Counted from the stretch's first letter, positions 1 through 62,214 are shown. The stretch: 64,000 bases of DNA from an uncultured Gammaproteobacteria bacterium (GCA_965602855.1 CBFCZV010000012.1:1332-65331); one strand, 5' to 3'. Translations and numbers: made by a program. The notes: generated by a model from the letters alone, not told the origin.

Positions 1-91
1 CCCGGATGTAGTGCAACGAAATCCGGGGAGTGGCCTGAAAATATCGTGGTGAAGTTTTCTGGATTATGCAGGGTTTATCTGAGCAGATTTG

Positions 92-847
92 CTACCTTTG
101 ACTTTTAAGAATACCTATTTCTTCGCTTAGATTATTCAAATCATTTTTATCTCGTAAGTAATTATATTTTTTAAAAGTCTTGATTATAGTTTTCTTAGCC
201 ATTTCAACCCTATGTTTATCCATATCTTCATAAGAGTTTATGTATTCACTACAATATTCAGACATTAGATCCATCATTTGTTTATGTGTATGCGCTATGA
301 TATTTTTTAGATCTATTATTTTTACATTAATATCAGCATCACTCATACTTTTCATATTTTCGATTGCATCAGCAATATCTTGTGTCAATATGTGTATATA
401 CACCATCTTTGATGCTGTAGATTCAGGCACAAAATGTTCCATATTGTAATAATCTTCAGCACACTTCTTAAAAACATACAGATCATATGAACTAAACTTT
501 GTATTACTAATTTTGCCCCTAACTTGGGCAGGACTTCCTTTTAATTTTTCTTCTAGATGTGGCTTTATTCTTCCAAACCATCTAAATAAAATTTCGTCAC
601 CTAATAATGCGATATAAAGCTTCTTCTTCCTTTTGATTTTTTCATTATATCTTTTTTTCTTAATTCTTAACGTGAGGCAATGTCCAAACATAACTGCAAT
701 TATTGTTGTGACCATCCCGACAATATAAGCAACAATATTATCTGAAATAAAAAAATCACTACCATTGCCAGCACATGACTCATTATGAATTTTACATAAT
801 ATGTTTTTTATCTTTTCTACATCTTCTATGAGATAATTATCACCCAT
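92..847 (-). CDS. hypothetical membrane protein with one N-proximal TM helix followed by a K/R-rich stretch; last gene of the AT-rich islet
   Basis: Intact 251-aa ORF. Hydrophobic segment IVAYIVGMVTTIIAVMFGHCL is followed by RIKKKRYNEKIKRKKK. Extremely AT-rich codon usage, like the neighbouring island genes. No motif I can name. Confidence 0.45.
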   Translation of the reverse strand: MGDNYLIEDVEKIKNILCKIHNESCAGNGSDFFISDNIVAYIVGMVTTIIAVMFGHCLTLRIKKKRYNEKIKRKKKLYIALLGDEILFRWFGRIKPHLEEKLKGSPAQVRGKISNTKFSSYDLYVFKKCAEDYYNMEHFVPESTASKMVYIHILTQDIADAIENMKSMSDADINVKIIDLKNIIAHTHKQMMDLMSEYCSEYINSYEDMDKHRVEMAKKTIIKTFKKYNYLRDKNDLNNLSEEIGILKSQR

Positions 848-1023
848 TGTACTGCCCTATTTAACCTGTTCATCTCGTGCATTATTTATTTGAAAATAAT
901 ACAAATAATGATTAGTGATTTCTTTCTAATTAATCTTTATCATTTAATTGTTCTATCAAAGCTAGTAGACATGCAGCGCAATGAATTGCGACCTACGAAC
1001 TGACCCATGGTCTATACGCTATC

Positions 1024-1950
1024 TTACATCTCAAAAAATATCTTTCGATAGTCATCATCATGTAGATTATGCTTAGCAATGTGGTAATTCGATACTGCAA
1101 CAGACTCAGAAAATAATTTAAAAGGTAGTTCATCAATACATATTTCAGCTATAACTGCTGCAAAATCCTTTTCATAACAATCTTGTAGTATTTTCAAGTT
1201 TGTCGATGGGAAGCTATTTTTAAATTCTTTATTAAATGGAGGAGAGAAATATCGAATAAGTGATGCTTCATATAACGCTATTCTCTCTTGCTCGGTAGTC
1301 CCATATAATTTATCAAGCCCTGACCTAATACGAGATGAATCTTCATCTTTATTTTTTGCATGTGGATTAAATACAGTAAGCATTCGATTAAACGGCTGCA
1401 CTTCAAGCAAAAGAAGCGTAAGTCTATATCCTTCAGGAATACCTTTTAGGGCAATTTTTTGCAATGTTTCATGCTTTAAGAGACGGTCAATAGCATTTCT
1501 TGATCCATCTTTACCATATGCTTGACCGATATATTGGACGTCAAGATTTACTACATTTGATTCATGACATAGGCGCGTTTGAATTTGTTGTTCATCAGGA
1601 AAGAACCTTTCGCCTTGCTCATTGCTTAAATAGGCAAATTCATCATCCTGATTTAACTTTAGCCCATCAGGCATATCTGACTCTAGGATATATTTATTAT
1701 CAAGTATGGAAAATATTAAGGATAGTTTGTTTGAATTTTGTTCGGCACCAGTAAAATCTATTTTAGGTAGAAGCCCAATAATATAGATATGACAAGTATC
1801 AATAACACTCATCAAAGGGGCTAAGACTTCCTTGTCGTATATCCCTTCCGCTGGAATTGTGCAAAAACTAGTAGCATACATGTCAAGTGCATGCTCCACA
1901 TCGAACAAGGCATTACCAAATAATTCGTGTTTTTTTGATTTGTCTCCCAA
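1024..1950 (-). CDS. hypothetical protein encoded in the AT-rich defence-like islet
   Basis: Intact 308-aa ORF on the same strand, 54 bp downstream of the SbcC-like ATPase gene. AT-rich. No recognisable catalytic motif from sequence alone. Confidence 0.45.
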   Translation of the reverse strand: MGDKSKKHELFGNALFDVEHALDMYATSFCTIPAEGIYDKEVLAPLMSVIDTCHIYIIGLLPKIDFTGAEQNSNKLSLIFSILDNKYILESDMPDGLKLNQDDEFAYLSNEQGERFFPDEQQIQTRLCHESNVVNLDVQYIGQAYGKDGSRNAIDRLLKHETLQKIALKGIPEGYRLTLLLLEVQPFNRMLTVFNPHAKNKDEDSSRIRSGLDKLYGTTEQERIALYEASLIRYFSPPFNKEFKNSFPSTNLKILQDCYEKDFAAVIAEICIDELPFKLFSESVAVSNYHIAKHNLHDDDYRKIFFEM

Positions 1951-2004
1951 CTCTATTTACCCCCCTTAAGCACGGCAACAACCATTTGTTACATTTATTT
2001 CAGT

Positions 2005-3993
2005 TTATTTTCTTGGCGTAGTATCCCAATCATCTATTAGTCCGATAGGAAGACCATTCACGCCGTTTGATCTATAGTGCGCTATTTCAAATCCTTGGCT
2101 TTCGTAAGCAACATCACGCGGAATATCGTTATCAACCAAAACAATTTGACAGAGCTTATTCTTCTCGTCAAATTCTTCGGCAACACTAATTAATGCCTCG
2201 AATAAGTTTTTGTATTTCTCTGGATCTGCTACTCCATCAATGTCATCGATATCTTCAAGCTGAGGCACCTTAGAATCCTCAGGTGTTTTCCCCAGAAATT
2301 TTCCTACGGTGTCAATCATAAGCAAGCCCGGGATATTGGTTTCCTTGCGTAACTTTTGCGACAGAATAGAAGCCAGATATCCGATAGAAACTATGGTTCT
2401 AAGCCCACCTGAGTTGATTTTCCTGTATTCGACATTTCGCACAAGGGGGAAAAATGTTCTTTCATCAATCCCTATTCCATGCTGATTTTTTATCTTAACC
2501 TGTTGAATGAATTTGTTAAGATCTGTACCAAGGTCAGATATAACATCGTCCAATGATGGTGAATTATCTTTAAGCTCGTCTAAATTAATCTTTATTTTTT
2601 CAATAGTACTTTCTAGGCGGCCGATCTGATCGGCAATACCACCTTGTTTGTTTCTGACTCGTAACGAATGAACTGTTTTTTCTCTGCGTTCATCAAGTTG
2701 CGCCGACTCTTTAATTATGGCATCCCGTTCAGCTAAGTAGGGCGATATCGAGCTTTCAAGTTCTTCATCCATGATCTCCCTAGCCTTGATTTTTTCAGCA
2801 TACAATTCGGTGAGGTATGAGTTTGCTATTTCTAAATCAGCTCTATTGTCAGATATCAACTGCTTAAGATCTTTTGTTCTTCTGGAAATCGAGGTTAACT
2901 CCCCTTTTAAACGAGTATCACTCGGAATATCAAATTTTCCAGATACATCACCGATGTCGATTAACGTTTCACATATTGGACAATTCGTTTTTTCTTGTAT
3001 GTCCCTGCCGATAATTTCTTTAGATGAAAGACTGGCTTTAATTTTATTAATGTCATTCTGATAGTCATTGTGAAGCCGAGTAAATCTTTCAATATTTCTT
3101 AGGGCGGTATTTTTTGCTTCTTCCTGGTGTTCAATGTTCAAGTTGATAGTATTTAGCGCATCTTTAAGTCCATCGTATAGTTCGCTATCACTCGTCATTC
3201 GACCATTCAAGTCAGAGAGTCGGCTTTGAACCTCAACTTTCATGCTATCAATATTGCTTATTTCCTCATCTAAATCCTTAGAGTTCTTAAATTCTGTCTG
3301 AGTCAGGAAGTTAGTTACTGCCGTATATTGATTAGTTAGCTGCGTCTTTTCTTGAGTTTTCCTGACTATGTCTACTTCCAGCTCAGAAATGTTAGAATCT
3401 AGCACACTGAAAATGTACTTTAAAACCTCTCTATTTTTAGTTTCCAATACAGCGTTGCCAATATTCATCATGTGTGCACTTCCTACATCATCCTGATCCA
3501 AGTACATGAACTTGAATAAATCGAGGAAGCTTAACCTACCTGTTTTTGATGAATCTTTTGTTGGTGCCTGTTTTAATCGAACCGTAGGAAACCCAAGTGC
3601 TTCAAGTAGAAAGTCGGACAGACTTTTGTTTTGATCGTCCCCTTTGGGAACGCTTGACTTGTATTTCTCCGGGAATGAATTGGACATTTCCGAATATTCA
3701 CAAGAATAGACATCTATATCTCTTGATGAATTAAATATATCCCGACTTATACAGTAGGTGAAACCATTAATGCTTATTTCAAGAATGGCATATTTTACAG
3801 ATGAAGCTATCTCTTCATCTAGCTTGATCTGCTTCCCACCAAGAAGGTAATAAACCAGTCTTAAAATACTAGACTTTCCAGTATCGGCATCACCATAGAT
3901 GATGTTGATTCCGGGATAAAAAGGAACTTGGTAGTCCTTCCGATGCCCATGGAGGATTAAGTTTTTTAGAAGCAAGCCTTGAGAAAGATCCAT
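2005..3993 (-). CDS. SMC/SbcC/Rad50-like ABC ATPase with long coiled-coil insert and central CPxC zinc-hook motif (LmuB / ABC-3C ATPase-like)
   Basis: N-terminal Walker A GDADTGKSS. About 300 aa of heptad-like, charged, low-complexity coiled-coil sequence follows. KTNCPICE (CPxC) sits mid-coil, as the Rad50/SbcC hook does. The C-terminal region has an ABC-signature-like NSGGLRT and a Walker-B-like LLMIDT. The start codon overlaps the stop of the upstream small gene (TAATG at 3991-3995). Confidence 0.75.
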   Translation of the reverse strand: MDLSQGLLLKNLILHGHRKDYQVPFYPGINIIYGDADTGKSSILRLVYYLLGGKQIKLDEEIASSVKYAILEISINGFTYCISRDIFNSSRDIDVYSCEYSEMSNSFPEKYKSSVPKGDDQNKSLSDFLLEALGFPTVRLKQAPTKDSSKTGRLSFLDLFKFMYLDQDDVGSAHMMNIGNAVLETKNREVLKYIFSVLDSNISELEVDIVRKTQEKTQLTNQYTAVTNFLTQTEFKNSKDLDEEISNIDSMKVEVQSRLSDLNGRMTSDSELYDGLKDALNTINLNIEHQEEAKNTALRNIERFTRLHNDYQNDINKIKASLSSKEIIGRDIQEKTNCPICETLIDIGDVSGKFDIPSDTRLKGELTSISRRTKDLKQLISDNRADLEIANSYLTELYAEKIKAREIMDEELESSISPYLAERDAIIKESAQLDERREKTVHSLRVRNKQGGIADQIGRLESTIEKIKINLDELKDNSPSLDDVISDLGTDLNKFIQQVKIKNQHGIGIDERTFFPLVRNVEYRKINSGGLRTIVSIGYLASILSQKLRKETNIPGLLMIDTVGKFLGKTPEDSKVPQLEDIDDIDGVADPEKYKNLFEALISVAEEFDEKNKLCQIVLVDNDIPRDVAYESQGFEIAHYRSNGVNGLPIGLIDDWDTTPRK

Positions 3994-4508
3994 TATACCC
4001 CCTGTTTTAAAGCAATATTTAAAAACCCATTTAACTTGGATGGGCTCTGTGATTGCAGTGAAGAAAGCTGCTTAAGAAACTGCCTTATCTTTCGAAAATA
4101 CCCTTCCTGCATTTGCTTCGCCTTAGACTTTCCTGCTTCGCTTAGGTCAAAAAGAAAGCCTGCAGAGTCAGCGTATTCCACTGAAAGATATTTTTTGGCA
4201 GAAAGTATTTTAATCATTATCAGAAGTCGCTCTCTATCAAAAAGCTCATCGACATTCACTGATAATGTATCAACTGTGTAGTAGTCGGTTTCCTCTATAT
4301 CAATTTGGCTTTTATCTGCAAGGCTTAAAACCCTATTCAGGAATGCAGGTCTTGTTACAAGAAAGTAAAATGTCTGAATCTTATCAATGGTTAATACTTT
4401 TTTGTGGCGTTTTGTTTTCGCTAGATTATCTAGTATTAGCAGTAAGACACCAAGGTTATAGTGAATCTCTCGCTCTGGCTGGATGTACGGTAATTTAATC
4501 ACTATCAT
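3993..4508 (-). CDS. small predicted all-helical protein (candidate middle component / LmuC-like), translationally coupled on both sides
   Basis: 171-aa ORF. Its 3' stop overlaps the ATPase start (TAATG). Its 5' end overlaps the 3' end of the hydrolase gene by 14 nt (4495..4508). No enzymatic motif. Size and position fit the middle component of three-gene ABC-3C/Lamassu cassettes. Confidence 0.5.
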   Translation of the reverse strand: MIVIKLPYIQPEREIHYNLGVLLLILDNLAKTKRHKKVLTIDKIQTFYFLVTRPAFLNRVLSLADKSQIDIEETDYYTVDTLSVNVDELFDRERLLIMIKILSAKKYLSVEYADSAGFLFDLSEAGKSKAKQMQEGYFRKIRQFLKQLSSLQSQSPSKLNGFLNIALKQGV

Positions 4509-5727
4509 CTTCCTTTAATAGGTTGCGTAATGAATCTTTTGATCCGTCTTTAATCCACCAAATATTTTCATCTTCTGAGTTGGCGAGTTGGTGCAACATT
4601 CCCTGCTTGTGGATAGCATTAATAAAGGGGATAAACGTATTTAAAAAATTTTTATCCTCCTTTAGAATTGTTTCGTGAACATCAGCTAATAGCAGCCCCG
4701 AGTTTGGTATCCCATCATGAACATACTTTGAGTAGCTATTCTGATAGACTTTTCGTATTTTTGAATACAACTCTGACAGGCGTTTTTGATCCGAGGCGCT
4801 GCTGAATATTTTTCTTATATACTCGGCATTAAGAAAAACTTCTTTGGCATCTCGGATTGAGGTCTTGTGAATATCTGCAGAAATTAACTTTAATACAAAC
4901 AATTCGTCATCAAAGTCTGACTCGTCTTCAAGCTGCAGAATTTCTAAATTTGATATTCCTGGATCATTTTTCTCAAAGTCTAAAATTATCTGCCTTATGG
5001 CCATATAAGTTGTGCTGGCAGGGCTTTCAGGCTTCGCAATACTAGTGTGATCTTCGTCCACAGGTATGATGTCTGATTTTTCTTTATCTACAGGTGCGGC
5101 ACTTGTTTTAGGGACGAGCGAATCATGAACTCCATAAAAATATTTTGTAGTTGGTCTTAAGCTAGTCTTTAGCCACTCGTCATTAATTTTGTGTATGAAT
5201 TGGTTTAGTGGAGAAAGATCTTCGATCTGGAGGTTGTCGCTGATCAGCTTTCCAAAAGTTGCAGCTTCAACTCCCTGGTGAGGTACTGCTAAGGAAACAA
5301 AAAGTTTGATTTTTGATGGAATATTTTCTTCTATGTCCTTTGCTATCGCACTTTTGGTTACTAGTCCACCCATGCTGTGGGCAATAATTATTATATTATC
5401 GTAGGCTTGTAGTCTGAATCGAATTTCGGTTCTAAGCAAGTTTCCGATTTCTTCAATACTTATGTTTTTGGTAAGTTTCCCATGAGATGTTCCAAACATT
5501 CGTTTAACAAGTGTCGAAACCTTACCAGCTTTAGCAAACAGGTTTAGTAACTTGGTAAAATACGAGAACTGAACTATGTCATAGTTCTCAGATACTTCTG
5601 AATCTTTAGAAAATAGCTCAGGGAACGAACTTGCTTCCCCATTGCGCCAAGTTAACTCCCCACCACAGAACCCATGGACAAATATAATCAGACTCTTTTT
5701 ATTGTTCTTAGAAATGAATTCAATCAC
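4495..5727 (-). CDS. alpha/beta-hydrolase fold protein (lipase/esterase-like, DUF676/PGAP1-like nucleophile elbow) with extra C-terminal helical domain; candidate effector (LmuA-like)
   Basis: Oxyanion-hole motif IIFVHGFCGG lies near the N-terminus. Nucleophile elbow IIAHSMGG (GxSxG) follows. Asp/His candidates occur further downstream. A ~180-aa C-terminal region has no hydrolase motifs. This is the first gene of the coupled three-gene cassette. Confidence 0.65.
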   Translation of the reverse strand: MIEFISKNNKKSLIIFVHGFCGGELTWRNGEASSFPELFSKDSEVSENYDIVQFSYFTKLLNLFAKAGKVSTLVKRMFGTSHGKLTKNISIEEIGNLLRTEIRFRLQAYDNIIIIAHSMGGLVTKSAIAKDIEENIPSKIKLFVSLAVPHQGVEAATFGKLISDNLQIEDLSPLNQFIHKINDEWLKTSLRPTTKYFYGVHDSLVPKTSAAPVDKEKSDIIPVDEDHTSIAKPESPASTTYMAIRQIILDFEKNDPGISNLEILQLEDESDFDDELFVLKLISADIHKTSIRDAKEVFLNAEYIRKIFSSASDQKRLSELYSKIRKVYQNSYSKYVHDGIPNSGLLLADVHETILKEDKNFLNTFIPFINAIHKQGMLHQLANSEDENIWWIKDGSKDSLRNLLKEDDSD

Positions 5728-5929
5728 GCTTAAACGCCTTATTTCTATATATCACCACTTTTATACCAATGAGCTCAGACTCAATTGATTGTTCGATTAG
5801 GATAATTCTAGATATAACCAACTCCGCACCCTCCCCAATAGCCCTGTGCTTCTCAACGAACAACCATTTTGTCTTCATAACCACAAAAAATGCAAGCACT
5901 TATTCGTTTTTGATCTTTGCTTTAGTTTA

Positions 5930-6260
5930 GCTTCACCCTCCCCTCTGCAACCTGCCTCAGATTTCAGCTTTGGTAGCGACAATTCGCCATGGACGGCGAA
6001 TTGAGGTTGGTTAGCCCGGACGGCTAATCCAACCGACGCGTAGGCAAAGTTGGAAGCTGAGGTGACCCGTAGGGGCAGGTTGTAGGGTGGCGGCATTTTT
6101 TTCGTTAGTCTTTTGTTGCTGTAGACAAAAGAGTAACCCGTGCCAGCAAGCACGGAAAAGTCAGTTATGGATTAGCACAGCAATTCAGTAAACAAAATAA
6201 CCACAACTCGACGCAGGAGCGTCTAAAACTGCATTCCCACGCAGAGCGTGGGAACGATAA
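5930..6260. repeat. hairpin-dense non-coding region between the AT-rich islet and hrpB (REP-like / structured RNA candidate)
   Basis: Several perfect or near-perfect short stem-loops. CAATTCGCC-atggac-GGCGAATTG lies at about 5975-6000. TTAGCC-cggac-GGCTAA lies at about 6010-6030. GACGC-agga-GCGTC lies at 6210-6223. TCCCACGC-aga-GCGTGGGA lies at 6235-6253. The last two are each followed by ...TAAAAC. No convincing ORF: the 92-aa ORF at 5875..6153 is probably spurious. Confidence 0.3.
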
Positions 6261-6290
6261 AACTCTATTACATTCCGCTATAATCCCCCC

Positions 6291-8888
6291 ATGCCAACCC
6301 TCCCAATAAACACCGTCCTCCCAGAAATAAAAACCACCCTAACCACCCACCCCCGTCTGGTCCTCCAGGCACCCCCAGGCGCAGGCAAAACCACCGCCGT
6401 CCCCATTGCCCTGCTCGACCAGCCCTGGCTAAAAAACAAACAGATCATTCTACTCGAACCCCGACGTCTCGCCGCACGTAACGCTGCCGCACGTATGGCC
6501 TATCTGTTAAATGAAAAAGTGGGCGAAACCGTGGGCTTCCAGATTCGTCAGGACAACTGCTTTAGTGACAAAACAAAAATACTGGTGGTCACAGAAGGCA
6601 TTTTAACGCGCAAGTTACAGGCTGATCCGGAGCTTAAAAAAACTGCGCTGGTTATTTTTGATGAATTTCACGAGCGTAGCCTGCACGCTGATTTATCACT
6701 GGCTTTGTGTTTGCAGAGCCAGCAGGTTTTACGCGAGGATTTGAAAATTCTGGTGATGTCGGCGACGCTCAATACCGATGCCGTCTCTACCCTGCTCGAT
6801 AACGCGCCCATTATTCAGAGCGAAGGCCGCAGTTTTCCGGTTGAGGTTAAATATCTCGATAAAGCCATCAACCAGAACAGCAATTTAAGTCCACAGCAGC
6901 AACTACTTTCAGGTTTGACGAATACCGTCAAAAAAGTCATTCATGATCACGACGGCAACTGCCTGGTTTTTCTGCCCGGTGTGAAAGAAATTAATCAGCT
7001 TGCTAATAAGATAAAACAGCACCTTGAAACTGAATCGATCAAAAATATTTTAATTGCTCCACTGCACGGCAGCCTGAATAAACAGCAACAGGATTTGGCT
7101 ATCGCATCACCCAATGATAAAGCCATGCGTAAAATTGTATTAGCCACCAATATCGCAGAAACCAGTATCACCATTGAAGGCATTAGCTGTGTGATTGATT
7201 CGGGTCTGGAGCGCCTGCTGGACTACAGTCCCGCCTCTGGTATGAACCGTTTAATAACACAGTCGATCTCTCAGGATTCAGCCGAGCAACGCGCTGGTCG
7301 CGCCGGAAGATTATCTGCCGGTGTCTGTTACCGTTTATGGACGGCGCAACAACAGCCACGTTTACTCAAACATGCATTGGCTGAAATTTTACACAGCGAC
7401 CTGTCATCACTGGTACTGGAGCTGGCCAACTGGGGCGTGACTCAGGCTGATGAAATGCAGTGGATGGATGCACCGCCAGGCAGTGCCAGCGAGCAGGCAA
7501 AAACATTACTGCAACAACTAAACGCCATTGATGATCAGGGCAAGATAAAATTGCATGGTCGTGACATGCTGAGACTGGGCACGCACCCACGGCTGGCGCA
7601 CATGATGTTATCTGCGATCAAACTGGATCAGGCTTATCACGCCTGCCTCATCGCCAGCCTGCTCACCGAGAAAGATTTATTTCTGGCCAGTGCCGATAAA
7701 AGCGCCGACATTCATGACCGGCTTAATGTTCTTGTGCATGGCCGATCAAATCATCACGGCATAGATAACCAGCAACGCAAACGCATAGTTCAAACCGCTG
7801 ATGATTTTTTTAAGCGGCTTAAACGTTGCAGCAAAGAAAACATAAATAAAGAGACACCAGACAATAATTATAGCGGCGTGCTTCTGGCCTATGCTTACCC
7901 CGATAGAATCGCCAAACAACGCAGCAGCAACGAAGCACGTTATTTACTCAGCAATGGCAAAGGTGCGGTTATTCCACCCTATTTACAACAGCACCTTCAT
8001 GAATACATCGTAGTCGCCAACCTTGATGCCAGACAGGGCGAAGCCTGCATTTATCTGGCCGCCGATATCACTGCCCAGCAGCTACAGGATTATTTTCAGG
8101 ATAACATTGAACAGAAAGAAAATATTGAATGGAATGAAACCCTACAACGCGTCGAAGCAAAACAGACCAGCCGCATTGGTAAAATAGTTCTACAGGAATC
8201 GCTTATTAATGATGGCAAAAAATCCGAGACCAGAGAAGCGGTACAGCAATGCCTGATACAGGCGATCAAAAACACAGGACTGCAATGTTTGAACTGGTCA
8301 GATCAGGCAGAACATCTTAAACAACGGGTGCAATTTATTAATCATCAGATTGATAACGAGCCAACGTTAAAAGATAAATTTAGTGATAGTGACCTGCCAG
8401 ACTTTGCAGATGAGACGCTGATTAATAAGCTCGACGAATGGTTACAACCACACCTGAGCAATGAAAACAGCATTAAACACTGCCAGAAACTGGATTTACA
8501 CAGCCTGCTCATAAGCCAGCTCAGCTGGGACCAGCAACAATTAATCAAACAATTAGCACCTGAAAAAATTAGCGTGCCCAGTGGCTCTGCCGTAACCATT
8601 GATTACACCGATCCCGTCCAGCCCATTCTCGCCGTCCGGCTTCAGGAAGTTTTTGGTTTATATGAAACACCGACCGTTTTAAATGGCCACTGCAAGCTCA
8701 TGATGCATTTGTTATCACCGGCGCGACACCCCATGCAGGTAACGCAGGATTTGAACAGCTTCTGGCAAACCACCTATCATGATGTAAAAAAAGATCTGCG
8801 TGGAAAATACAAAAGACACTACTGGCCGGATGATCCATTTACCGCACAGGCAACCAGTAAAACCAAAAAACAAATGAATCGACAATGA
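6291..8888 (+). CDS. hrpB: ATP-dependent RNA helicase HrpB (DEAH-box)
   Basis: Motif I QAPPGAGKTT near the N-terminus. DEFHERS (DEAH-box variant). SATL motif. HA2/OB and HrpB-specific C-terminal domain give a length of 865 aa. Confidence 0.9.
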   Translation: MPTLPINTVLPEIKTTLTTHPRLVLQAPPGAGKTTAVPIALLDQPWLKNKQIILLEPRRLAARNAAARMAYLLNEKVGETVGFQIRQDNCFSDKTKILVVTEGILTRKLQADPELKKTALVIFDEFHERSLHADLSLALCLQSQQVLREDLKILVMSATLNTDAVSTLLDNAPIIQSEGRSFPVEVKYLDKAINQNSNLSPQQQLLSGLTNTVKKVIHDHDGNCLVFLPGVKEINQLANKIKQHLETESIKNILIAPLHGSLNKQQQDLAIASPNDKAMRKIVLATNIAETSITIEGISCVIDSGLERLLDYSPASGMNRLITQSISQDSAEQRAGRAGRLSAGVCYRLWTAQQQPRLLKHALAEILHSDLSSLVLELANWGVTQADEMQWMDAPPGSASEQAKTLLQQLNAIDDQGKIKLHGRDMLRLGTHPRLAHMMLSAIKLDQAYHACLIASLLTEKDLFLASADKSADIHDRLNVLVHGRSNHHGIDNQQRKRIVQTADDFFKRLKRCSKENINKETPDNNYSGVLLAYAYPDRIAKQRSSNEARYLLSNGKGAVIPPYLQQHLHEYIVVANLDARQGEACIYLAADITAQQLQDYFQDNIEQKENIEWNETLQRVEAKQTSRIGKIVLQESLINDGKKSETREAVQQCLIQAIKNTGLQCLNWSDQAEHLKQRVQFINHQIDNEPTLKDKFSDSDLPDFADETLINKLDEWLQPHLSNENSIKHCQKLDLHSLLISQLSWDQQQLIKQLAPEKISVPSGSAVTIDYTDPVQPILAVRLQEVFGLYETPTVLNGHCKLMMHLLSPARHPMQVTQDLNSFWQTTYHDVKKDLRGKYKRHYWPDDPFTAQATSKTKKQMNRQ

Positions 8889-10217: not shown

Positions 10218-10970
10218 TCAAGTATATTGATAACAACGATAGTCACGAATAGATAACTCTGCCGCCAACGTCGCACGATAATCATCCAATACATCTGGCA
10301 ATTCAATATCAACAAACTCAATCTGCACAGAAGGTTGGTATTTTTTTGAGTGGTGTTCAATTAGTGCAGGCGACTGAGGTGGAACTGTTAAAGTAAAGCC
10401 CGTCGGAGGAAGTGATAATCCACTGCCCAGCACTTTCATGTAGGCCTCTTTACGGGTCCAGAGCTGATAAAACGCTGACTTCTGGTTTTCTTTCGCTAAT
10501 GCAAATAGCGCCTGTTTCTCAGGTTCTGTATAAAATCGCTGACAAATTTCAGCCCATTCTGTTTTTCGATCCATGTATTCAATATCAATACCCAGCTCTG
10601 TGCCTCTGCTGACTGCAAGTAATGTTATATCCTGTGTATGGCTTAGATTGAATTTTATATCCTGCTGATTATCTTCTGCAGCAACGAGTGAGGGCTTGCC
10701 CTTATCACCAGACTGAAACTGGATATGGGCTGGCTCTATGAATAAGTATTTTGCCAGCACTGAACGTTTAAAGCCGTGCGACATGATGAAACGATTTCGA
10801 TGAATATCTAGCTTGAAGCGTTGCGCTCTGGCCTGTTCTTCGGCTGACAAGAGAGTGCTGAAATAACCGAATTTATCCTTAACGGTCTCTGCTTTGCATA
10901 ACCAGATATCGACAACACCCTGCTGCAATTTGAAATCTGGATTTTTATTCCACTGGTGGGCAGTACCCAT
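10218..10970 (-). CDS. pfaE: Sfp-type 4'-phosphopantetheinyl transferase PfaE
   Basis: PPTase motifs LGIDIEY (G-x-D-x-E) and WTRKEAYMKVLG (W-x-x-KEA-x-x-K). 250 aa. Directly downstream of pfaD in the same operon. Confidence 0.85.
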   Translation of the reverse strand: MGTAHQWNKNPDFKLQQGVVDIWLCKAETVKDKFGYFSTLLSAEEQARAQRFKLDIHRNRFIMSHGFKRSVLAKYLFIEPAHIQFQSGDKGKPSLVAAEDNQQDIKFNLSHTQDITLLAVSRGTELGIDIEYMDRKTEWAEICQRFYTEPEKQALFALAKENQKSAFYQLWTRKEAYMKVLGSGLSLPPTGFTLTVPPQSPALIEHHSKKYQPSVQIEFVDIELPDVLDDYRATLAAELSIRDYRCYQYT

Positions 10971-10971
10971 T

Positions 10972-12498
10972 TTATCTCGGCGCTGTTGGGATATACCGCT
11001 GGTATTTTGCCGGTAGATACAAGCCCTGACTTTTTAATACCTGAATTCGATGCTGATAGGCTGCGCCATACATCAACTGTTCGGCAACATCGACTACTTT
11101 ACGATTTTGGTAATCATTCAAATAAGTTGAAGCCACCCAGTCATTAAAGGCACCCATCGCAGGGCCGCTCCATATTTGGTAGTCAAATTCACGGCCTTTT
11201 ACACCGGCGTTTGACCAGCGCGATGAAAGCCCCAGATACCAACGAAAAACTAATGCCATTTGTTTCTTTGGATTATCTTTTGCTTTTTCAATAATGGATG
11301 GATCGCGTTTCTGGAAAAATTCTACGGTCTGCTGCCAGATAGTATCAACACTATTTTGCAAAATCTGCTTCTCTACTTTTTCCAGCTCAGTAGGTGGAAT
11401 TTCAGAGAGGCTATTATAAGTTGAGTACAACTCATATAATTTCTGCGCACGCATCGGAAACAGTGTGCCCTTTTTCAGTACCTGTAGTTTAATGCCGCGT
11501 TCAAACATGTCGGATGCCGGTGCCATCACCACATCAGCCATGCCTGCTTCTGCTAATAATTTACGAGTATGCTCTGACGCGCCCGCCTCCACGCAGCTCT
11601 GGTTAACCGAACCGGTAACGACATAAGCCGCACCCATGATATAACAGGCCAGTGCGGCATCGGGTGTACCGACACCACCACCCGCTCCCACTCTAATTTC
11701 AACAGGATAATTATTCTGCTGCTGAATTTCATCCCGCAATGCAATCACCGACGGCAATAAAGATATCAAAGGACGATTATCGGTATGTCCACCTGAATCG
11801 GCCTCGACAGTAATATCATCGGCCATGGGTACTCGCAGCGCCAGTTGCGCCTGCTGTTCGCTGAGCAAACCATCAGCGACTAATTTGTTGAGCACATTTT
11901 CTGGCGCAGGCTGCATAAACACAGTCGCCACTTCTCGTCTGGAAACTTTGGCGATAATTTTATTATTGATCTGGATGTTGCCCTGTGAATCCTGTTGCAA
12001 ACCCTTGGCACGATAATAAACCAGCGAAGGTGTCAGATTAAAAAAGGCCGCAGCCTCTATCACATTGACACCGTACTTCAGGTATAAATCGATGGTGCCC
12101 TGCTCAATCGCAGGTTCGGATGGGTTATGGATAAAATTGAAAACATAAGGCCCATTGGGTAGCGCCTGCTGAATATTTTTAATCGCCAGTTCAACGCGGT
12201 TAAGGTCGAGACCACCAGCGCCAAAAGAAGCCAGGATGTTCTGTTTTCCCAGCGCAATAACCATCTCTTCCGAGGAAATACCATTGGCCATGGCACCAGT
12301 CATATAAGCGTACTTCACGCCATAAAATGCCTTAAACGCGGGATCACCCAACTGCTCTGCCTGCATCGGTGGAACAAAGGCGCTAATTTTTGCGACATCT
12401 TCACAACCTTCATTATTGATAACGAGCTGATCGTTATCCTGAATAACGTAACACGGTTTATCTAATTGCTGTAAAGACTCCAGACCCTGAATCGACAT
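10972..12498 (-). CDS. pfaD: PfaD-family trans-enoyl reductase (FMN-dependent, 2-nitropropane-dioxygenase-like) of PUFA synthase
   Basis: 508 aa. TIM-barrel NPD-like core with the glycine-rich stretch VGAGGGVGTPDAALA. Position immediately after pfaC is as in known pfa clusters. Confidence 0.88.
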   Translation of the reverse strand: MSIQGLESLQQLDKPCYVIQDNDQLVINNEGCEDVAKISAFVPPMQAEQLGDPAFKAFYGVKYAYMTGAMANGISSEEMVIALGKQNILASFGAGGLDLNRVELAIKNIQQALPNGPYVFNFIHNPSEPAIEQGTIDLYLKYGVNVIEAAAFFNLTPSLVYYRAKGLQQDSQGNIQINNKIIAKVSRREVATVFMQPAPENVLNKLVADGLLSEQQAQLALRVPMADDITVEADSGGHTDNRPLISLLPSVIALRDEIQQQNNYPVEIRVGAGGGVGTPDAALACYIMGAAYVVTGSVNQSCVEAGASEHTRKLLAEAGMADVVMAPASDMFERGIKLQVLKKGTLFPMRAQKLYELYSTYNSLSEIPPTELEKVEKQILQNSVDTIWQQTVEFFQKRDPSIIEKAKDNPKKQMALVFRWYLGLSSRWSNAGVKGREFDYQIWSGPAMGAFNDWVASTYLNDYQNRKVVDVAEQLMYGAAYQHRIQVLKSQGLYLPAKYQRYIPTAPR

Positions 12499-15400
12499 TT
12501 ATTCGGCCTCCTTAATACTCAGGCCAATATTTTCTACGGAGTAAATTCGCAGGCCATCTTTCCACAAGTTTCCATCGACAAGAATATCAATGCGACCGAC
12601 ATTATTTCTAATCTCTTTAACATGAACCTCAAGTGTCATCACTTTATTATCAGGAATAATCTGTCCTCGATAACACCAGCTGGCTTCATCTTCTACCGGA
12701 CCAAAGCGTGGGTTTTTAAAATCTTTACCCAGGTTCTGTTGCAGCGCAAAAACCTGTATCGATTGAATCATCGCCTCGACTCCCAATGAACCCGGCATCA
12801 CCGGATCCAGATAGAAGTGACAGGGATAGAACCAGTCAGTGGCATCGATCACATTCATGGAGTGGACATAACCCTTGCCATATTTGCCACCATCAGCAAC
12901 CACGATAGATTCATCGATAAAGTCCAGCATACCACCGGCCAGGTGGTAATAAGGTTTATCCTGTTTCGCCGCGTACAGATCCTGTCTGACCTGTTCAGAG
13001 TGAAGATCAAGCTTGATTAATCTATCATCAGAAATCGCTTCTTCTTTATACCAGGGCAGTAATTTTTTACCCTTATCCATACCCACCTGATTAGACAGCG
13101 AATCGGCGGTAAAGAAACCGAATACCGCATCACCCTCGTAGAAAGTTTCACCATCGCAAATTAATTCAAAGGTGAACTTTTGAATAATATTGTTCATCAC
13201 CGCGGAGGTAGAATACATGGTCGATTTATTGACGATGGTCTTGCCACGAAGATCAACTTCTTTTATTAATCGTCCGGTTCCATCCAGATTACGGAAATAA
13301 AGATTTGAATCTGGATAGAGCAAGGTGCTGCCAATATGCGAAGTCAAAAACCCATTCGGCTGTAACGCAATCTCCATTAACATCGAGTAAGGCGTAAACG
13401 AGGGGTAAGAATTCTCAGTACAGAACCAGACGTCTTCGGCAACATCATATTCGGCGGTACAGCCGGTGGTGTTATCAAAATCATGACGTTCACCCTCCAC
13501 GCTCATCACCCGATCCATTAACTGTAAATAACCATTGGGGGTACGTGGTGGTCGTCTGGCAGGATCACCGGCTTTCGCTGGCGGCTGTTTATAAATAGCG
13601 AACTCAGGACCAAAACAGGCTTCGATATCACCCGTGGCAAAGTGCACTATCTGCTCTTCGGTAAATAGCGGTGCTTTTTTGCTGCTTGGCACAACTGCCA
13701 GTGCTGGTGGTGTTGATTGCACTGGTGCTGGAGCTGGCTGCTGATTAATATCTGCCGCGCCACCTTTTAGCAACAGTTTTTCTGCGGCACTCTTTTCAGA
13801 TAGTTCAAGACAAACATTTCTAAAGTCGACCACCACTTTTCCATCTAGCAAAATATCGACGTTACCTTTGGCATAAGGTTTTGGACTCAGACCGATTTCG
13901 GTCACTTCCAGTCGGTAGGTCATCAATCGATCTTTGGGTAGAGCCTGACCCCGGCATCGAATAGGCTGGGGTATGTTCTGTATCGTCTGGAAGCGCGCAT
14001 CTTCTGTTTTGGTGTGCAGGCCTAAATAGAGCATGAAAAATTGCAGTAACTGAACACAACCTTCAGACATCAAGGAACCAGCCAGCACAGGATCATCGCG
14101 GAAGTGACTGGTAAAGTACCACTCATCCGGCAACAGGTCTTTTTCAGCTTCGATAAATCCAAGACCCCACAGGCCACCAGCAGGATCAACCGAAGTGATA
14201 CGATCCAGCATCAGAATTTTTTCTAATGGGAAATGCAAAGAAGGATTTTTGCCCATTTTGTCGTAAGCCGGATTGGCATAACAGGCGGCTAAATCACCCG
14301 TGGTCAACGAATGCATATCATTCTTATCAAAAGATGTTTTGCTGCATTGCAACAAAGGAGTAAACGATGACTTTGTCACGCGTCCCCGCTCAGCAGTTTC
14401 CTCATTGGTGCGAATAACACCCTTGCCAACGGCGAGCTCCTCTTCCGAGAAGAAACCGGCACAACCCTCATCCATTTTCAGGATCATTTTATCGCCGATA
14501 AAACACTCGTAAGAGAAAAAGAACAGCAGGTTATTTTTATGCTGGGCGAAAGAGTTGATGGAAATTTCATAACGCAGCGTCTGACCTTCTTTGGGCTGGT
14601 CATCCAGGAAGGTCAAAGTGCAATCGAGCAAACGGTACAGATATTTGCCTTTGTTATTAAAATCGATACCCATGTAGCTGATCAACAACAAATCACATTG
14701 ACCCGATTCGATACAGATACAGGTGGGGATCTGACCATCGGTTGAATACCAGGCATTGTGCGGAATATCATATTCCGTGGTCATTTTAGAAGGTTTAAAC
14801 TCACCACGTTCACCCTGCATTTCAGTAACACGCGTCACCAGCAAATAAGGATCCATCGGTAACATTACCCGTTTAGGATAACTATCGATGATGTCATATT
14901 CAGAGCCAAACACCTTGCCAATTTTTCCATAGGCAAATTCGCGTAAATCTTCTTCGCTGAAAATTATTTTCTCAGGCGTGCTGTATTCAGACGGGAACAA
15001 TTGTTTTGTCGCGACATTCTCATTAGAAGCAGTTGCTGCCGGTGTAAGCGAAGCCGTCTGAGTTGTACGTACTATATTTCCTGAACCCGGCGAGTGGATA
15101 CTATCAATAATCGATGCCGTTAAAGCCTGCAAGCCCTGATGGCGTGAAGCCATAAATCCTGCGTGCATTTTGCTGATGTTAATATTGTGCTGTAACATTT
15201 TTTGCAGCATTTCACTTTGATAAGTAGTTGAACCTCCGGTGACATAACCGGGCGTACCATTGGCAACTATTTTTCTCTCTGACATGTTTTGTCTCTGTTT
15301 ATCTATGCTTGCTGAATGCAGTTTATTTTCAACTGGCTCAGGATTTGTTTTAGTTACCACCGCTGGCTTGGCTGGAGGCATTTTAACTACTTCTGCTTTT

Positions 15401-18400
15401 TTAATTACCGGAGCCACTGGCTGTACTTTTTCAGGCAAAAATCTTGTCCTGTTTTGCTCAGCAAGAATGACTTCTGAAAATGGCTGCTTACCTAATACAA
15501 CCGGTTTGACCAAACTTGGCTTTTTGCTTTGCGCTTCATTCACAGCAGGATAAAGTTTATCCAGATCCATGGCTACGCCATGACAGGTCAGTTTGGCGGC
15601 CAAACGCAGTAAGGAGGTATAGTCATCCACACCCTTGCGATTAATGTTCACCGCAAGATGCTGTTTGCCTTTCAGGCTTTCACCAATCCATTTTGTACAG
15701 CTGCCCTGAGGCCCCAGTTCAATAAAGATGCGCGCACCATCGTCATACACCTTATTAACCAGCTTTGGAAAATCGACCATGTGCGTATAGAAAGTCGCGA
15801 TATTGTGACCAATAACATCATCTTTGATTTCAGTTTTCTGGTAGTCGGCCGCGGTATAAAAATCAACACCTTCAATTTGGGTGGTTGGCATGGTGTGCAA
15901 TTCTTTAAGCGCATCAAACTCTGCTTTCACCAGTTCATTGTGAACAACATCTTTAATCGGAACAGGGAACAATTTCCATTTTAATTTTTTGACAACACGT
16001 CGACAGGCTTCATCATCACCAGCGATAACAATTTCATTGGGTGCGTTAATAATGATGAGGAACACCCTGTCCTCTTCAGCAATTATTGGCTCTGCTTTTT
16101 CTGGCGAGGTTCGCAAAGTATAAGTGCCCCAGATGGGCTTATCACCCTCTTTAGCCGGCGGCAGATTCCAGGCCTGCCTGACCACATCCATCTCACCGAC
16201 CAGGCGATTATGGAAGGTAGCGGTTGAGTGCAGAGTCTCACTCATGTAGTCGGTATTACCCCAGGCACCCGATGAGAACAGCATGGATAACTCGCCCATA
16301 CTGTGACCAAAAGCAGCACCAGGCTTAACGCCCAATAAATCCTGAATCACCTTGGTGTAGACAACAGAAGTCATAATGCCAGACTCAAACATGGCAATAG
16401 CATCTTCACCCATGACTTCCTCTAATTGTTTAAGCGCCTTTTTATCAGCTGCTGAAACAGTTTCAGGATAGACATAATGAGTGCGCATCATGGTTTTTAA
16501 ATTGGAGCTGGCGTTTGCAACCAGTTCTATGGTCTCGGGGAACATATGAAATATGTCCCTGGCCATACCAATATAAGAATTAAAACCACCAGGATAAACG
16601 AAAGCGATCTTGCCTTTTTCAGCCTGTGGTGTCGGTGTGAAGTAACTGCCTAACGGCGTTGACCACTCCTGTGCATTTTCCATGGCTACGGGCAGGCCTT
16701 TTTGAGCTGCAAGAATTTCACGCTGCAATTCTTCAGATGAATGCGCCAGTACTGTGATACGAAATTTTGCAGTCGTATTTTTCTTAAACTGCTGGTATTT
16801 ATCCAGCGAAAGTTGTTTTAAAGAAATCGTCTGTGCGGATTCTACTTGCAGTGAATCCAGCTCCTGCAATAACGTTTTTTCTGACTGGGCGCTAAGCGGG
16901 AACATAAAGAAGGACAGATTTTCAAAAAAATCATTCTTCGGTGTTTGAGCCTTATCGGCTTCAGATAAAATCAAATGATAGCAGCTGTCATCCTGACCCA
17001 GACTATTGATCGCCGCATAACGTTTTTTATGATCACTGTTAATCAACCAGGGGCGGGACTGCTCGGGAAAATAAAAATTATTTTCATCCCAGCTGGATAA
17101 ATCTTTTGGTTTATCCCAGCCGGGAATGCCCGGAATAAAACGCTGATGAATGCACAGCGCTGTTTTTACCAGACTGGCAATACCGGAAGCGGCAAAAGTG
17201 TGACCAATATTGGCTTTCACACTTCCTAGTGCACAAGTTTGTTTCTGGTAGGTTTTTTTCAGGGCCACAATTTCGGCATCATCCTGATTCTGGATACCAC
17301 TGCCGTTTAATTCAATATAATCAATCTGATCTTTGTCAACGCCAGCCTGTTGCAGGGCGTCGGCAGATGCCTGTTGTAAACTATCAGCAGAAACATTACG
17401 TTTACCTGCCAGCGCTTCAATCGTCGCGTAAACCCGCTCACTATTTTCCAGCTGATCATTACGCTTTAAAACAACGGCACCAGCACCTTCACCGATGCTC
17501 CAGCCTGTGCTGCCCTGATCAAAACTCAAACCAGCGTCATCATTTGAATCAAGTGGATTGCGCTGATTTTGAAGATAGACGTGTTCAAAACCACCCGCCA
17601 GATCCACCGCACCAACTACCATGGCATCGACTTCACCAGAATCTAAAAATAACTTAGCCACTTCCAGCGCTTTGAATACGGAATTTTCTTCTGAAGAAAT
17701 AGTAAAAGCCGGGCCGGAGAAATCCCACAGGGAACAAATACGACAGGGAATAATATTGCCGATAAAACTGGTGAACTGATTGATCTCAACCGCATTGTGC
17801 AGGCTATCTTTCAGTAGATCGGTGAGCTGTTCCTGCTGCACATCGCTCAATTCAATATTGCTGTTACGCAGGCTCTCCTGCAGTTGCCAGGCAACATCAA
17901 TACGCCCACGGAACTGATGAATCCCCAGGTCCATTTCCATCGCTACAATAACACCAACATTGCCACATTTAGGCAGGGTGGAATCTTGCAGCGCTTCATC
18001 CAGCACTTTCATCATCAGCAACTGTTGCGGTAATAAAGGCGCCTGTTCTTCCGGTGGGATTTTGAAATACAGGTAATCAAAATCAAACTGATCTATGTAG
18101 TTTCCCTGTGGTGCTTTTTCATCAAGACCAAATTTTTTCAATAACGGGCTATCGTTTTCAATACCCTGCCAGCGATCTTTAGGTAAAGATCGTTGCAAAC
18201 GTCTGGAGTTGTAGATGGTCTCTTCCAGTTCAGACAACGATTTACTCTGCCCGAAGTAAGCACTCATACCAACGATAGAAATCGCCTGCTCCGTGATTTC
18301 AGTCGGTTTCTGTTTTGCTATTTTCTCCTGCTGTTTTTTAGTCAACGGAAGATGCTCTTCCATCACCAGATGTGCATTAGTTCCACCAAAACCAAAAGCG

Positions 18401-19719: not shown

Positions 19720-19745
19720 ACGAAAAATCTCAAATACTTCTGACC

Positions 19746-27994: not shown

Positions 27995-29551
27995 ATGACC
28001 TCCCCCAACTTTTGTAACGCAATGACATCAATTGTCGCAGACCTCTCTCGCGACCTGCCCTCTCAGCAGCGCTATCAGCGCCTGTTGAGCGCGATGCAAA
28101 GCAGTTTTCCCTGTGATGCCGCAGCTTTACTATGCCTGGATGGCAATTACCTGATCCCACTGGCCATCGACGGATTGAGCGATGACACCATGGGGCGTCA
28201 CTTTGAAGTTGAAGATAATCCCCGACTCGCTCGTTTACTGCATTCACGTGAGCCTGTTAGATTTGCTGCCGATTCAGATTTGGCTGATCCATACGATGGC
28301 CTGGTTGAAACTGAAGACCATCTATTGCATGTACACGACTGCATGGGTTCTTCACTGTATATTGATGATCAACCTTGGGGCGTATTAACGCTTGATGCCA
28401 TGAAGCCAGGGACTTTTGACAGTATAGACCCCATTGAATTACGCAGTTTTATCAGCCTGGCCGAAGCAACAGTAAAGGCCGCTGAACGCATACATGAACT
28501 GGAAGCACGAGTTAAGCATGGTGTCATGGTGACTCGTGAGTTACTCAAAAAAGGCACTGATGTTGAAATGATCGGCAACAGCAAAGTCATGCAAAAGTTA
28601 AAAGATGAAATTGCCGTGGTTGCACAATCTGACCTCACCGTTTTGATACAGGGTGAAACAGGAGTAGGAAAAGAGTTAGTAGCCGGACAAGTGCATGCCA
28701 ATTCAGCACGCGCAGAATTCCCCATGATTTACGTAAACTGCGCCGCACTACCAGAAAACATTGCCGAGAGTGAATTGTTTGGTCATATCAAAGGTGCATT
28801 TTCCGGCGCTGTATCAGACCGTGCCGGCAAATTTGAAATTGCCGATGGTGGCACTCTATTTCTGGATGAAATTGGAGAACTCAGCCTGGCCATTCAGGCA
28901 AAAATGTTAAGAGCAATACAAAATGGCGAAATACAGCGTGTTGGCAGCGACCAATATATACAGGTCGATGTGCGCATTGTTGCAGCAACTAACCGTGACT
29001 TACAACAAGAAGTTTCAAACGGTAATTTCCGCGCTGACCTTTATCACCGTTTAACCGTTTACCCGGTACAAGTTCCTGCATTACGTGAACGAGGTAAAGA
29101 CGTCCTGTTATTAGCCGGATATTTTTTAGAAGACAATCAACGTCGTCTTAGCGTCAAAGCATTGCGTTTATCTGCTGATGCTAAAAAAGCACTGCAACAA
29201 TATTCATGGCCGGGCAACGTACGTGAACTGGGTCACCTGTTGAGCCGCGCCACACTAAAAGCAACAACAGATCAGGGAAAAAATAATGATTCGATTATTA
29301 TCGACACCTCTTACCTGGATATTAGTCACGATTATTCTGTTGAAACCAATGAACCCCACAAAGAACTCACACCAAAGCCCGATTTAATTAAAAATAACCT
29401 CACTCTTAAGGAAGCTGTTGATGAATTTCAACGAGAAGCTATAGAAGAAGCACTGAAGAGGCACAATGGAAATCTCGCTTCAGCTGGACGAGAACTGGGA
29501 GTGAACCGTAGTAATTTTTATCGATTACTCAAACGATTAAATATCAATTAA
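27995..29551 (+). CDS. norR: NorR-type sigma-54-dependent transcriptional activator (GAF sensor + AAA+ sigma-54 interaction + Fis-type HTH)
   Basis: The N-terminal GAF region aligns closely by eye with E. coli NorR ([59 protein letters not shown]). The AAA+ core has [26 protein letters not shown] (GAFTGA variant) and a GSDQ arginine-finger region. A C-terminal HTH is present. Confidence 0.85.
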
Positions 29552-61946: not shown

Positions 61947-62214
61947 AATATTCTCCAATATAAGGGTTAGGCCTCCATATACCCCATGAAATAACCGTTT
62001 TTTAAAACGGCACCCAATTACATGTGACGGTATATGTGCGAAGTAAAATTAGATATAGTCTGCCCTCAGGCAATGGTTATATCCGGTTAAGTCTCAAGGA
62101 AACCTTGAGCGCGGCGGCTTTATACCATATTGAGAATGAAGAAACAACATTTGACGTCACACAAAGAGTGGCTCAATGCAACGATAACCGATTGATTAAC
62201 AAAGAAATTATACC

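Follow-up and report, generated by a model that had tools for sequence, protein, structure and literature searches.

The Lamassu family of defence systems is built around an effector, LmuA, that may carry nuclease, SIR2, hydrolase, protease or monooxygenase domains (10.1101/2022.05.11.491447; review PMC10586767), and its defence requires the ATPase, the effector and LmuC, with abortive infection as the phenotype (10.1101/2022.05.11.491447). A study of the family (Proc Natl Acad Sci USA 2025;122:e2519643122, PMC12663957) separates long systems, in which LmuB has ~800 amino acids (aa) and the Walker B motif reads hhhhDD, from short ones, in which LmuB has ~600 aa and the motif reads hhhhD[Q/S/T/E], and names 'Lipase' as an effector of the short type. 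It also describes Ec-Lipase, an E. coli Lamassu of short clade H with a zinc hook, which protects against Lambda-vir; protection depends on the Walker A residue K42 of LmuB and on the catalytic H215 of LmuA, toxicity and dependence on the catalytic histidine were shown, and the text covered here names no substrate (PMC12663957). A structural study of the Salmonella system reported that lipase-type LmuAs carry CTD8 or CTD9 and extended its 'liberation and oligomerisation' model to them (10.1101/2025.03.14.643221), and cryo-electron microscopy has shown that LmuB2-LmuC sequesters monomeric LmuA, which is set free and oligomerises in response to DNA ends (10.1101/2025.03.14.643221; 10.1101/2025.06.23.660979). 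Here we analysed a stretch of 64,000 nucleotides (nt), referred to as the window, from an uncultured Gammaproteobacteria bacterium (GCA_965602855.1, CBFCZV010000012.1:1332-65331), in which three genes at 2005-5727 appear to form a system of this lipase-bearing kind.

With a probability of about 0.88, the locus is an intact type II 'short' Lamassu defence operon (ABC-three-component, ABC-3C; LmuACB) of the lipase-effector subtype. The identity and integrity of the three components, their motifs, the predicted folds of LmuA and LmuB and the linkage of the genes were established by the analysis, and all of the defining features that were tested are present, namely the components, their order, the length of LmuB, the Walker B class, the hook, the triad and the CTD type. 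An earlier reading made from the sequence alone (the sequence-only reading) had proposed a Lamassu/ABC-3C cassette with a hydrolase or lipase-type effector, and in this it agrees with the profile searches, the fold search and the synteny. Its further suggestion of an uncharacterised subtype did not hold, as short Lamassu systems of the lipase type form a named clade that includes an experimentally validated E. coli member (PMC12663957), and lipase-type LmuAs are reported to bear CTD8 or CTD9 (10.1101/2025.03.14.643221). It had also treated LLMIDT as a peculiarity of the locus; this segment falls within the hhhhD[Q/S/T/E] pattern given there (PMC12663957), and its D-T pair is invariant in 19 homologues. 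The subtype is therefore already catalogued and the locus is an ordinary member of it. Three unannotated genes can be named with high confidence as lmuA (lipase type, CTD8), lmuC (MC4) and lmuB.

Components and predicted folds of the operon

The operon is co-directional and tightly packed, in the order lmuA-lmuC-lmuB (A-C-B), and is composed of the following genes.

4495..5727, minus strand: lmuA, 410 aa, GTG start; the effector, an N-terminal alpha/beta serine hydrolase joined to CTD8 (C-terminal domain 8 of the ABC-3C systems), a docking/oligomerisation domain
3993..4508, minus strand: lmuC, 171 aa (169 aa if translation starts at the GTG at 4502); the middle component
2005..3993, minus strand: lmuB, 662 aa, a 'short' LmuB; an SMC/Rad50-like ABC ATPase

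The coordinates of the reading frames and the junctions agree with the overlaps noticed earlier in the sequence: lmuA and lmuC share 14 nt (junction ATGATAGTGATTAA), and lmuC and lmuB share 1 nt at TAATG (junction GTATAATGG). An alternative lmuC start, a GTG two codons downstream (4502), is used in public gene calls and gives a protein of 169 aa and an overlap of 8 nt, and the overlap with lmuA persists whichever lmuC start is taken. The GTG start of lmuA is supported because M1 and I2 are almost invariant among its homologues.

LmuA is divided into two parts.

4957..5706, minus strand: hydrolase ('lipase') domain of LmuA, aa ~8-257, with oxyanion residues H18-G19, nucleophile elbow A116-H-S118-M-G-G121, acid D202 and base H227
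4549..4926, minus strand: CTD8 of LmuA (Pfam PF20284), aa 268-393, non-catalytic and helical

The PADLOC LmuA profile PDLC03851 matched aa 1-406 with an E-value of 5.2e-95, and CTD8 (PF20284) matched over its profile positions 1-126 of 127 at 3.2e-46. At the N-terminus the Pfam matches were PGAP1 (1.5e-10) and DUF676 (2.8e-9), covering aa 8-157 or beyond, followed by Palm_thioest, LCAT and Lipase_2. The motifs quoted in the sequence-only reading (HG oxyanion, AHSMGG, GDADTGKSS, NCPICE, a signature-like segment and LLMIDT) were all found when their coordinates were checked, the two in LmuA lying within FVHGFCG (aa 16-22) and IIAHSMGGL (aa 114-122). Conservation was judged on two sets of LmuA homologues, 51 sequences extracted from the related loci and 26 protein-database entries. 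H18-G19, A116-H-S118-M-G-G121 and H227 are invariant in both sets, whose D202 shows no variation among the 26 database sequences and is at least 90% conserved among the 51 locus-derived ones; because S118, D202 and H227 are conserved across homologues, a Ser118-Asp202-His227 triad is assigned to LmuA.

The AlphaFold model of LmuA confirmed the predicted alpha/beta hydrolase fold, with a predicted local distance difference test (pLDDT) score of 80-93 in the hydrolase core. A Foldseek search of the PDB with this model returned, at ~1e-6, FphH, monoacylglycerol lipases, type II thioesterases, esterases and B. subtilis lipase, and at similar E-values formamidase and karrikin-type hydrolases. A hydropathy scan revealed no signal peptide or transmembrane segment in LmuA, LmuC or LmuB; in the LmuA model strand beta-1 already begins at residue 2-6, and the highest 19-residue hydropathy (1.27) is located in the nucleophile-elbow strand. 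The hydrolase is joined to CTD8 in all 120 of the 120 LmuA homologues among the matches listed, and many of the database homologues are named 'ABC-three component system protein' by NCBI. A secreted bacterial lipase, which the earlier reading had named as one of the outcomes that would overturn it, was ruled out on these two grounds, the missing signal peptide and the constant fusion to CTD8.

The hydrolase domain (aa ~11-246) also has ~29%-identical relatives in NACHT-annotated genes on plasmids of B. thuringiensis and B. cereus (H27, H28), and judging from these alignments the effector module appears to be reused in STAND-type proteins.

LmuC was identified by its matches to the Pfam family MC4 (PF20290, ABC-3C middle component 4), over profile positions 1-132 of 133 at 4.2e-47, and to the PADLOC LmuC profile PDLC03869 at 3.4e-47. 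LmuB matched the PADLOC LmuB profile PDLC03862 over aa 2-657 at 2.9e-208, so that the profile check proposed with the earlier reading gave full-length PADLOC matches for all three proteins, together with CTD8 and MC4 from Pfam. The Pfam matches of LmuB itself were sub-threshold only (AAA_15 and SMC_N), and NCBIfam held no model for LmuA, LmuC or LmuB, giving only sub-threshold SMC-like matches. The motifs of LmuB are listed below; their conservation was judged on 19 database homologues of 48-88% identity.

3871..3894, minus strand: Walker A, GDADTGKS, aa 34-41; G34, D35, T38, G39, K40 and S41 invariant
3484..3504, minus strand: Q-loop, YLDQDDV; Q167 and D168 invariant
2497..3399, minus strand: the two antiparallel coiled-coil arms (aa 199-327 and aa 359-499), which flank the hook
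2965..2988, minus strand: zinc-hook motif, TNCPICET, aa 336-343; C338, P339 and C341 invariant
2398..2418, minus strand: ABC signature, INSGGLR, aa 526-532; S528 and G529 invariant
2305..2328, minus strand: variant Walker B, GLLMIDTV, aa 556-563; D561-T562 in place of D-E, invariant
2125..2148, minus strand: H-loop position, aa 616-623; an invariant Q-I/V-x-L-V-D-N-D without histidine, V620-D-N-D623 being the last part

The AlphaFold model of LmuB (pLDDT 81) runs from an N-terminal head half (aa 1-195) through ascending helices, a short CPIC hook and descending helices to a C-terminal head half. DSSP placed helices in the model at 199-231, 238-266, 271-327, 359-477 and 481-499, and the spans 199-327 and 359-499 bear out the coiled coil of ~300 aa that had been read from the sequence. 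LmuB carries a single CxxC (C338-P-I-C341), a putative zinc hook, which lies at the apex of the coiled coil in the model; the hydrolase fold, the coiled coil and the hook are thus all as the earlier reading expected of the models. In the fold search against the PDB the eight best matches of LmuB were all Lamassu LmuB chains (E 8e-19 to 3e-14), including 9uxh_F, 9hqx_B, 9hqu_A, 9ux7_A and 9nyg_B; these were followed by one YydD model, and Rad50, SMC, JetC and MukB ranked lower. A grouping of the ATPase with housekeeping SbcC/RecN proteins would have told against a Lamassu; the LmuB structures ranked ahead of Rad50 and SMC instead. Against PDB sequences, the LmuB family profile found Salmonella LmuB first (9hqu_A, deposited as 'DUF3732 domain-containing protein'), with CPIC aligned over the CPMC hook and LMIDT over LILDQ. 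Single-sequence phmmer searches of the PDB with each of the three proteins gave no match, and the Lamassu structures were reached only by profile and fold searches.

Wadjet (JetABCD) was considered as well and rejected: JetC matched marginally (E 0.0089) over 140 coiled-coil residues, and no JetA, JetB or JetD was found nearby.

Linkage, spread and comparison with described systems

A scan of one genome per species gave 59 loci with relatives of LmuB; M[IV]DTVGK, the peptide pattern by which they were retrieved, covers Walker B, and the 19 database homologues of LmuB were obtained independently of it. Fifty-five of the loci include DNA upstream of lmuB, and in 53 of these a substantial match to LmuA lies directly upstream in A-C-B order, the two exceptions being a fragmentary locus (L048) and one with a weak partial match (L059). 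In 51 of the related loci an LmuC was detectable, in each case between lmuA and lmuB. The cassette is not a product of chance, because the profile E-values range from 3e-47 to 3e-208 and the arrangement is kept in 53 of the 55 loci. The hosts of the related loci include Gamma-, Beta- and Alphaproteobacteria, Campylobacterota (Arcobacter, Sulfurimonas) and Geobacter, and further Bacillota (Paenibacillus, Bacillus, Clostridium) and Bacteroidota (Hymenobacter, Flavobacteriaceae).

Some database homologues of LmuB are named 'Exonuclease SbcC', and its weak NCBIfam and Pfam matches are to SMC/Rad50 heads, as would be expected of a housekeeping SbcC/RecN-type DNA-repair ATPase standing by chance beside an unrelated lipase gene. 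This explanation is scarcely credible, since the neighbours are an MC4-type LmuC and a CTD8-bearing hydrolase and not an SbcD/Mre11 partner, the length of 662 aa and the D-T Walker B are unlike SbcC, and the fold matches place LmuB above Rad50. The linkage to the hydrolase in 53 of 55 loci, the presence of CTD8 in all 120 hydrolase homologues among the matches listed and the position of the cassette in a low-GC (guanine plus cytosine) islet argue in the same direction.

Methylophaga, Marinobacter, Methylomonas, Pseudomonas aeruginosa and Halomonas carry copies of the cassette at 75-89% identity, and as these genera are unrelated, horizontal spread of the cassette is indicated. Relatives of the cassette were found on plasmids too, and relatives of LmuB on two IMG/VR viral contigs. 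LmuA, LmuC and LmuB each matched PHROG families of unknown function, and a tblastn search of GenBank phages with LmuA gave no match. The copies in Pseudomonas aeruginosa, Marinobacter, Methylomonas and Halomonas may serve as handier experimental models than the metagenome-derived one.

Cassettes of 79-89% identity were also binned to a Carnobacteriaceae metagenome-assembled genome (L019, Bacillota) and to a Syntrophaceae one (P0002/P0122); going by the alignments, these would be either very recent transfers across phyla or short contigs that were mis-binned. In Klebsiella pneumoniae (CP125156.1, 3308410-3311917; L065) a lipase-type Lamassu with an LmuA of 41% identity is annotated as 'putative lipase / hypothetical protein / exonuclease SbcC', and because type IV secretion and MobC genes stand directly beside it, it rides a conjugative or integrative element. 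The record, of 5.37 Mb, is filed as a plasmid in the plasmid database and looks like a mislabelled chromosome.

This distribution bears on the question of what the system acts against. DdmABC, the Lamassu of V. cholerae, restricts plasmids in addition to phage (10.1101/2022.05.11.491447; PMC10586767), and the horizontal spread among unrelated genera and the occurrence of relatives on plasmids and, in Klebsiella, close to genes for type IV secretion and mobilisation would suit a cassette that acts mainly against plasmids or other mobile DNA, or that serves its islet as an addiction module, and not against phage. We consider this improbable: the sole lipase-type system tested protected against phage Lambda-vir (PMC12663957), the PHROG matches of all three proteins and the two viral contigs fit a conflict between phage and host, and a role against plasmids does not in any case exclude one against phage.

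As to the described systems, the locus shares with Ec-Lipase the three components, a lipase-type LmuA, a short LmuB, one CxxC hook and a Walker B of the hhhhD[Q/S/T/E] class, and the essential K42 and H215 of Ec-Lipase (PMC12663957) are matched here by K40 and, as judged by position, probably by H227. The hook, the type of effector and the Walker B motif make it probable that LmuB belongs to short clade H. The two differ in host, which here appears to be a marine-type gammaproteobacterium with a pfa gene cluster. A blastn search ('distant' mode) of 5,426 complete E. coli genomes with the cassette gave no match, and the nearest enterobacterial relative found was the Klebsiella record, with its LmuA 41% identical. 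Compared with the ABC-3C systems (Pfam CTD1-12/MC1-8), the locus is an exact fit, an effector with CTD8, MC4 and a coiled-coil ABC ATPase in the same gene order; no difference was found, and it is a standard CTD8/MC4 instance.

The Lamassu systems with solved structures are of the nuclease type, namely Salmonella LmuACB (9hqu/9hqx), V. cholerae DdmABC/Vc-Cap4 (9nyg, 9uxh) and Bacillus LmuAB (9ux7). The fold of LmuB and the logic of the operon are the same, and the hook and Walker B align with those of Salmonella LmuB. In contrast, the effector is a serine hydrolase here and a Cap4 nuclease there, the CTD and MC families are other ones, and Walker B carries D-T where Salmonella LmuB has D-Q; LmuB of Vc-Cap4 lacks a zinc hook (PMC12663957), whereas LmuB here has the hook motif. 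SbcCD/Rad50-Mre11, the proposed evolutionary ancestor of Lamassu, likewise has an ABC head, an antiparallel coiled coil and a CxxC zinc hook. The locus differs from it in having no Mre11/SbcD partner but MC4 and the CTD8-bearing hydrolase, a much shorter coiled coil, threonine in place of the Walker B glutamate, and VDND at the H-loop position.

Several points weigh against our assignment or narrow it. The evidence for the cassette consists of sequence, models and synteny, and the likeness to Ec-Lipase is one of described features (PMC12663957). In structural alignment LmuB is only ~15% identical to the nuclease-type LmuBs, and it is across this gap that the mechanism is transferred. The uniform D-T Walker B of the fetched loci is not independent evidence, because the pattern used to fetch them covers it. 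The LmuA model has an overall pLDDT of 64.8, with 40-65 in the CTD, whose helices are predicted at low confidence. 'Lipase' is a label and not a demonstrated activity, because the fold matches of LmuA are to generic alpha/beta hydrolases. Finally, a scan for promoters and terminators found fewer promoter-like sites than in shuffled controls, and no promoter or terminator could be assigned.

Proposed mechanism and target of the hydrolase

The mechanism proposed for the locus is taken by analogy from the solved nuclease-type Lamassu complexes. Two LmuB, linked to each other through the CPIC zinc hook, would together with a single LmuC keep a monomer of LmuA inactive by sequestering its CTD8. ATP-bound heads of LmuB would bind DNA ends, or intermediates formed as an invading phage or plasmid replicates, upon which the complex would open and LmuA would be freed. 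The freed LmuA would associate with itself through CTD8, and the Ser118-Asp202-His227 hydrolase would turn active and kill or arrest the infected cell, i.e., abortive infection. The 1:2:1 LmuA:LmuB:LmuC complex, the sensing of DNA ends, the release and the oligomerisation are thus all carried over from those relatives and may be expected, by this likeness, in the present system. The VDND at the H-loop position and the D-T Walker B, as read in the sequence, suggest very weak ATP hydrolysis by LmuB; slow ATP turnover due to the D-T pair would make the switch close to one-way.

The sequence-only reading expected the effector to act on membranes or lipids, which we may reasonably infer as well. 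Because the relatives of LmuA are PGAP1, DUF676 and LCAT, a membrane lipid is its most likely target, and the likeliest route of killing would be the hydrolysis of membrane lipid esters. The same Lamassu system may instead have a hydrolase that cleaves another ester, a thioester or an amide, so that death or arrest would not come from the breakdown of the membrane; acyl-carrier or acyl-CoA thioesters, precursors of lipoproteins or of the cell wall, and acyl modifications of proteins are candidate targets of this kind. The Foldseek neighbours of LmuA do mix thioesterases, esterases, formamidase, karrikin-type hydrolases and monoacylglycerol lipases at similar E-values, and PGAP1, DUF676, Palm_thioest and LCAT are deacylases or thioesterases as much as true lipases; thioesterase or esterase chemistry is therefore possible for the modelled LmuA fold. 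The work on Ec-Lipase, too, shows toxicity and dependence on the histidine, with no substrate in the accessible part of the report (PMC12663957). Nevertheless, lipid acyl esters are the substrates of all the Pfam relatives that score best (PGAP1, DUF676, LCAT, Lipase_2), the field calls the domain a lipase, and the review lists membranes among the predicted targets of Lamassu (PMC10586767). We regard a target other than membrane lipid as a tentative second choice, to be kept in mind but not expected, and membrane lipid as the preferred target.

A more speculative proposal joins both of these issues, and we hold it to be unlikely: the lipase-type LmuA would cleave a substrate other than bulk membrane phospholipid, perhaps an acyl-thioester or else one particular lipid-linked precursor, and the clade with the D-T Walker B and VDND would be an ATP-binding, essentially non-hydrolysing, single-use switch. 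We found no substrate of an LmuA lipase reported in the literature for any Lamassu system. If the proposal is true, cleavage of such a substrate would place a new chemistry of abortive infection under the control of an SMC-like DNA sensor. The locus itself adds one intact, horizontally spread member to a catalogued subtype with one validated representative and opens no new question; the questions that it touches belong to the whole subtype, i.e., the substrate of the hydrolase, how oligomerisation switches on an effector that is not a nuclease, and the effect of the Walker B threonine on ATP turnover.

Genomic setting of the islet

The cassette marks a small defence islet that adjoins hrpB. 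The GC content is 36% for positions 1-5870 of the window and 44% for the rest. On an identical metagenomic contig (L060, 14082-14399) a CvfB/YitL-like gene is seen to end just past the start of the window, and the islet can therefore be delimited as ~5.9 kb between this gene and hrpB (6291-8888). Its five genes are lmuA, lmuC, lmuB and two others of 308 and 251 aa. No flanking direct or inverted repeats marking integration were found in a repeat search over 1-7000, there is no transfer RNA gene in the window, and no integrase was found in the islet.

1024-1950, minus strand: open reading frame ORF308, 308 aa, in the low-GC islet, 54 nt downstream of lmuB
92-847, minus strand: open reading frame of 251 aa, at the islet edge, with one probable transmembrane helix at aa ~42-60 (hydropathy 2.03)

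ORF308 matched only PHROG 15714 (unknown function, 4e-26) and nothing in Pfam, NCBIfam, PADLOC or the PDB. It has 957 homologues, in which many polar residues are invariant, and its copies of 60-87% identity in Geomonas, Idiomarina, Halomonas, Legionella, Spirochaetes and Burkholderiales, taxa that are very distant from each other, suggest horizontal spread as a single gene. The homologue in Idiomarina abyssalis (L062) lies in a dense defence island with putAbiC, OLD-TOPRIM/AAA_15, HEPN_AbiU2 and HipA, and the one in Legionella stands alone. From its sequence and distribution, ORF308 is a candidate for an uncharacterised single-gene defence or mobile-element gene. The 251-aa reading frame had no match in Pfam, NCBIfam, PADLOC or PHROGs and does not resemble the gene next after the homologue of ORF308 in Idiomarina. 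Neither gene was found near lmuB in any of the 59 related loci, and both are therefore regarded as cargo separate from the Lamassu.

The GC-rich spacer of 560 nt between the start of lmuA and hrpB contains, in the orientation of hrpB (5949-6068, plus strand), a near-threshold candidate for the Rfam TwoAYGGAY RNA motif (RF01731; 42.7 bits, the gathering score being 43; E ~1e-5), with two hairpins whose loops read AUGGAC and CGGAC. Of the Rfam families, only the t44 small RNA (RF00127) exceeds its gathering threshold in the window, at 61966-62058 on the minus strand with 80.5 bits. Beyond hrpB, a pfa-type polyunsaturated-fatty-acid polyketide synthase cluster occupies 10218-27236 on the minus strand, and its presence points to a marine-type gammaproteobacterial host. 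The cluster consists of a 4'-phosphopantetheinyl transferase (10218-10970), a PfaD-like enoyl reductase (10972-12498) and two giant open reading frames of 2406 aa (KS/KS/AT/FabA domains) and 2496 aa, and it is followed by a sigma-54 activator at 27995-29551.

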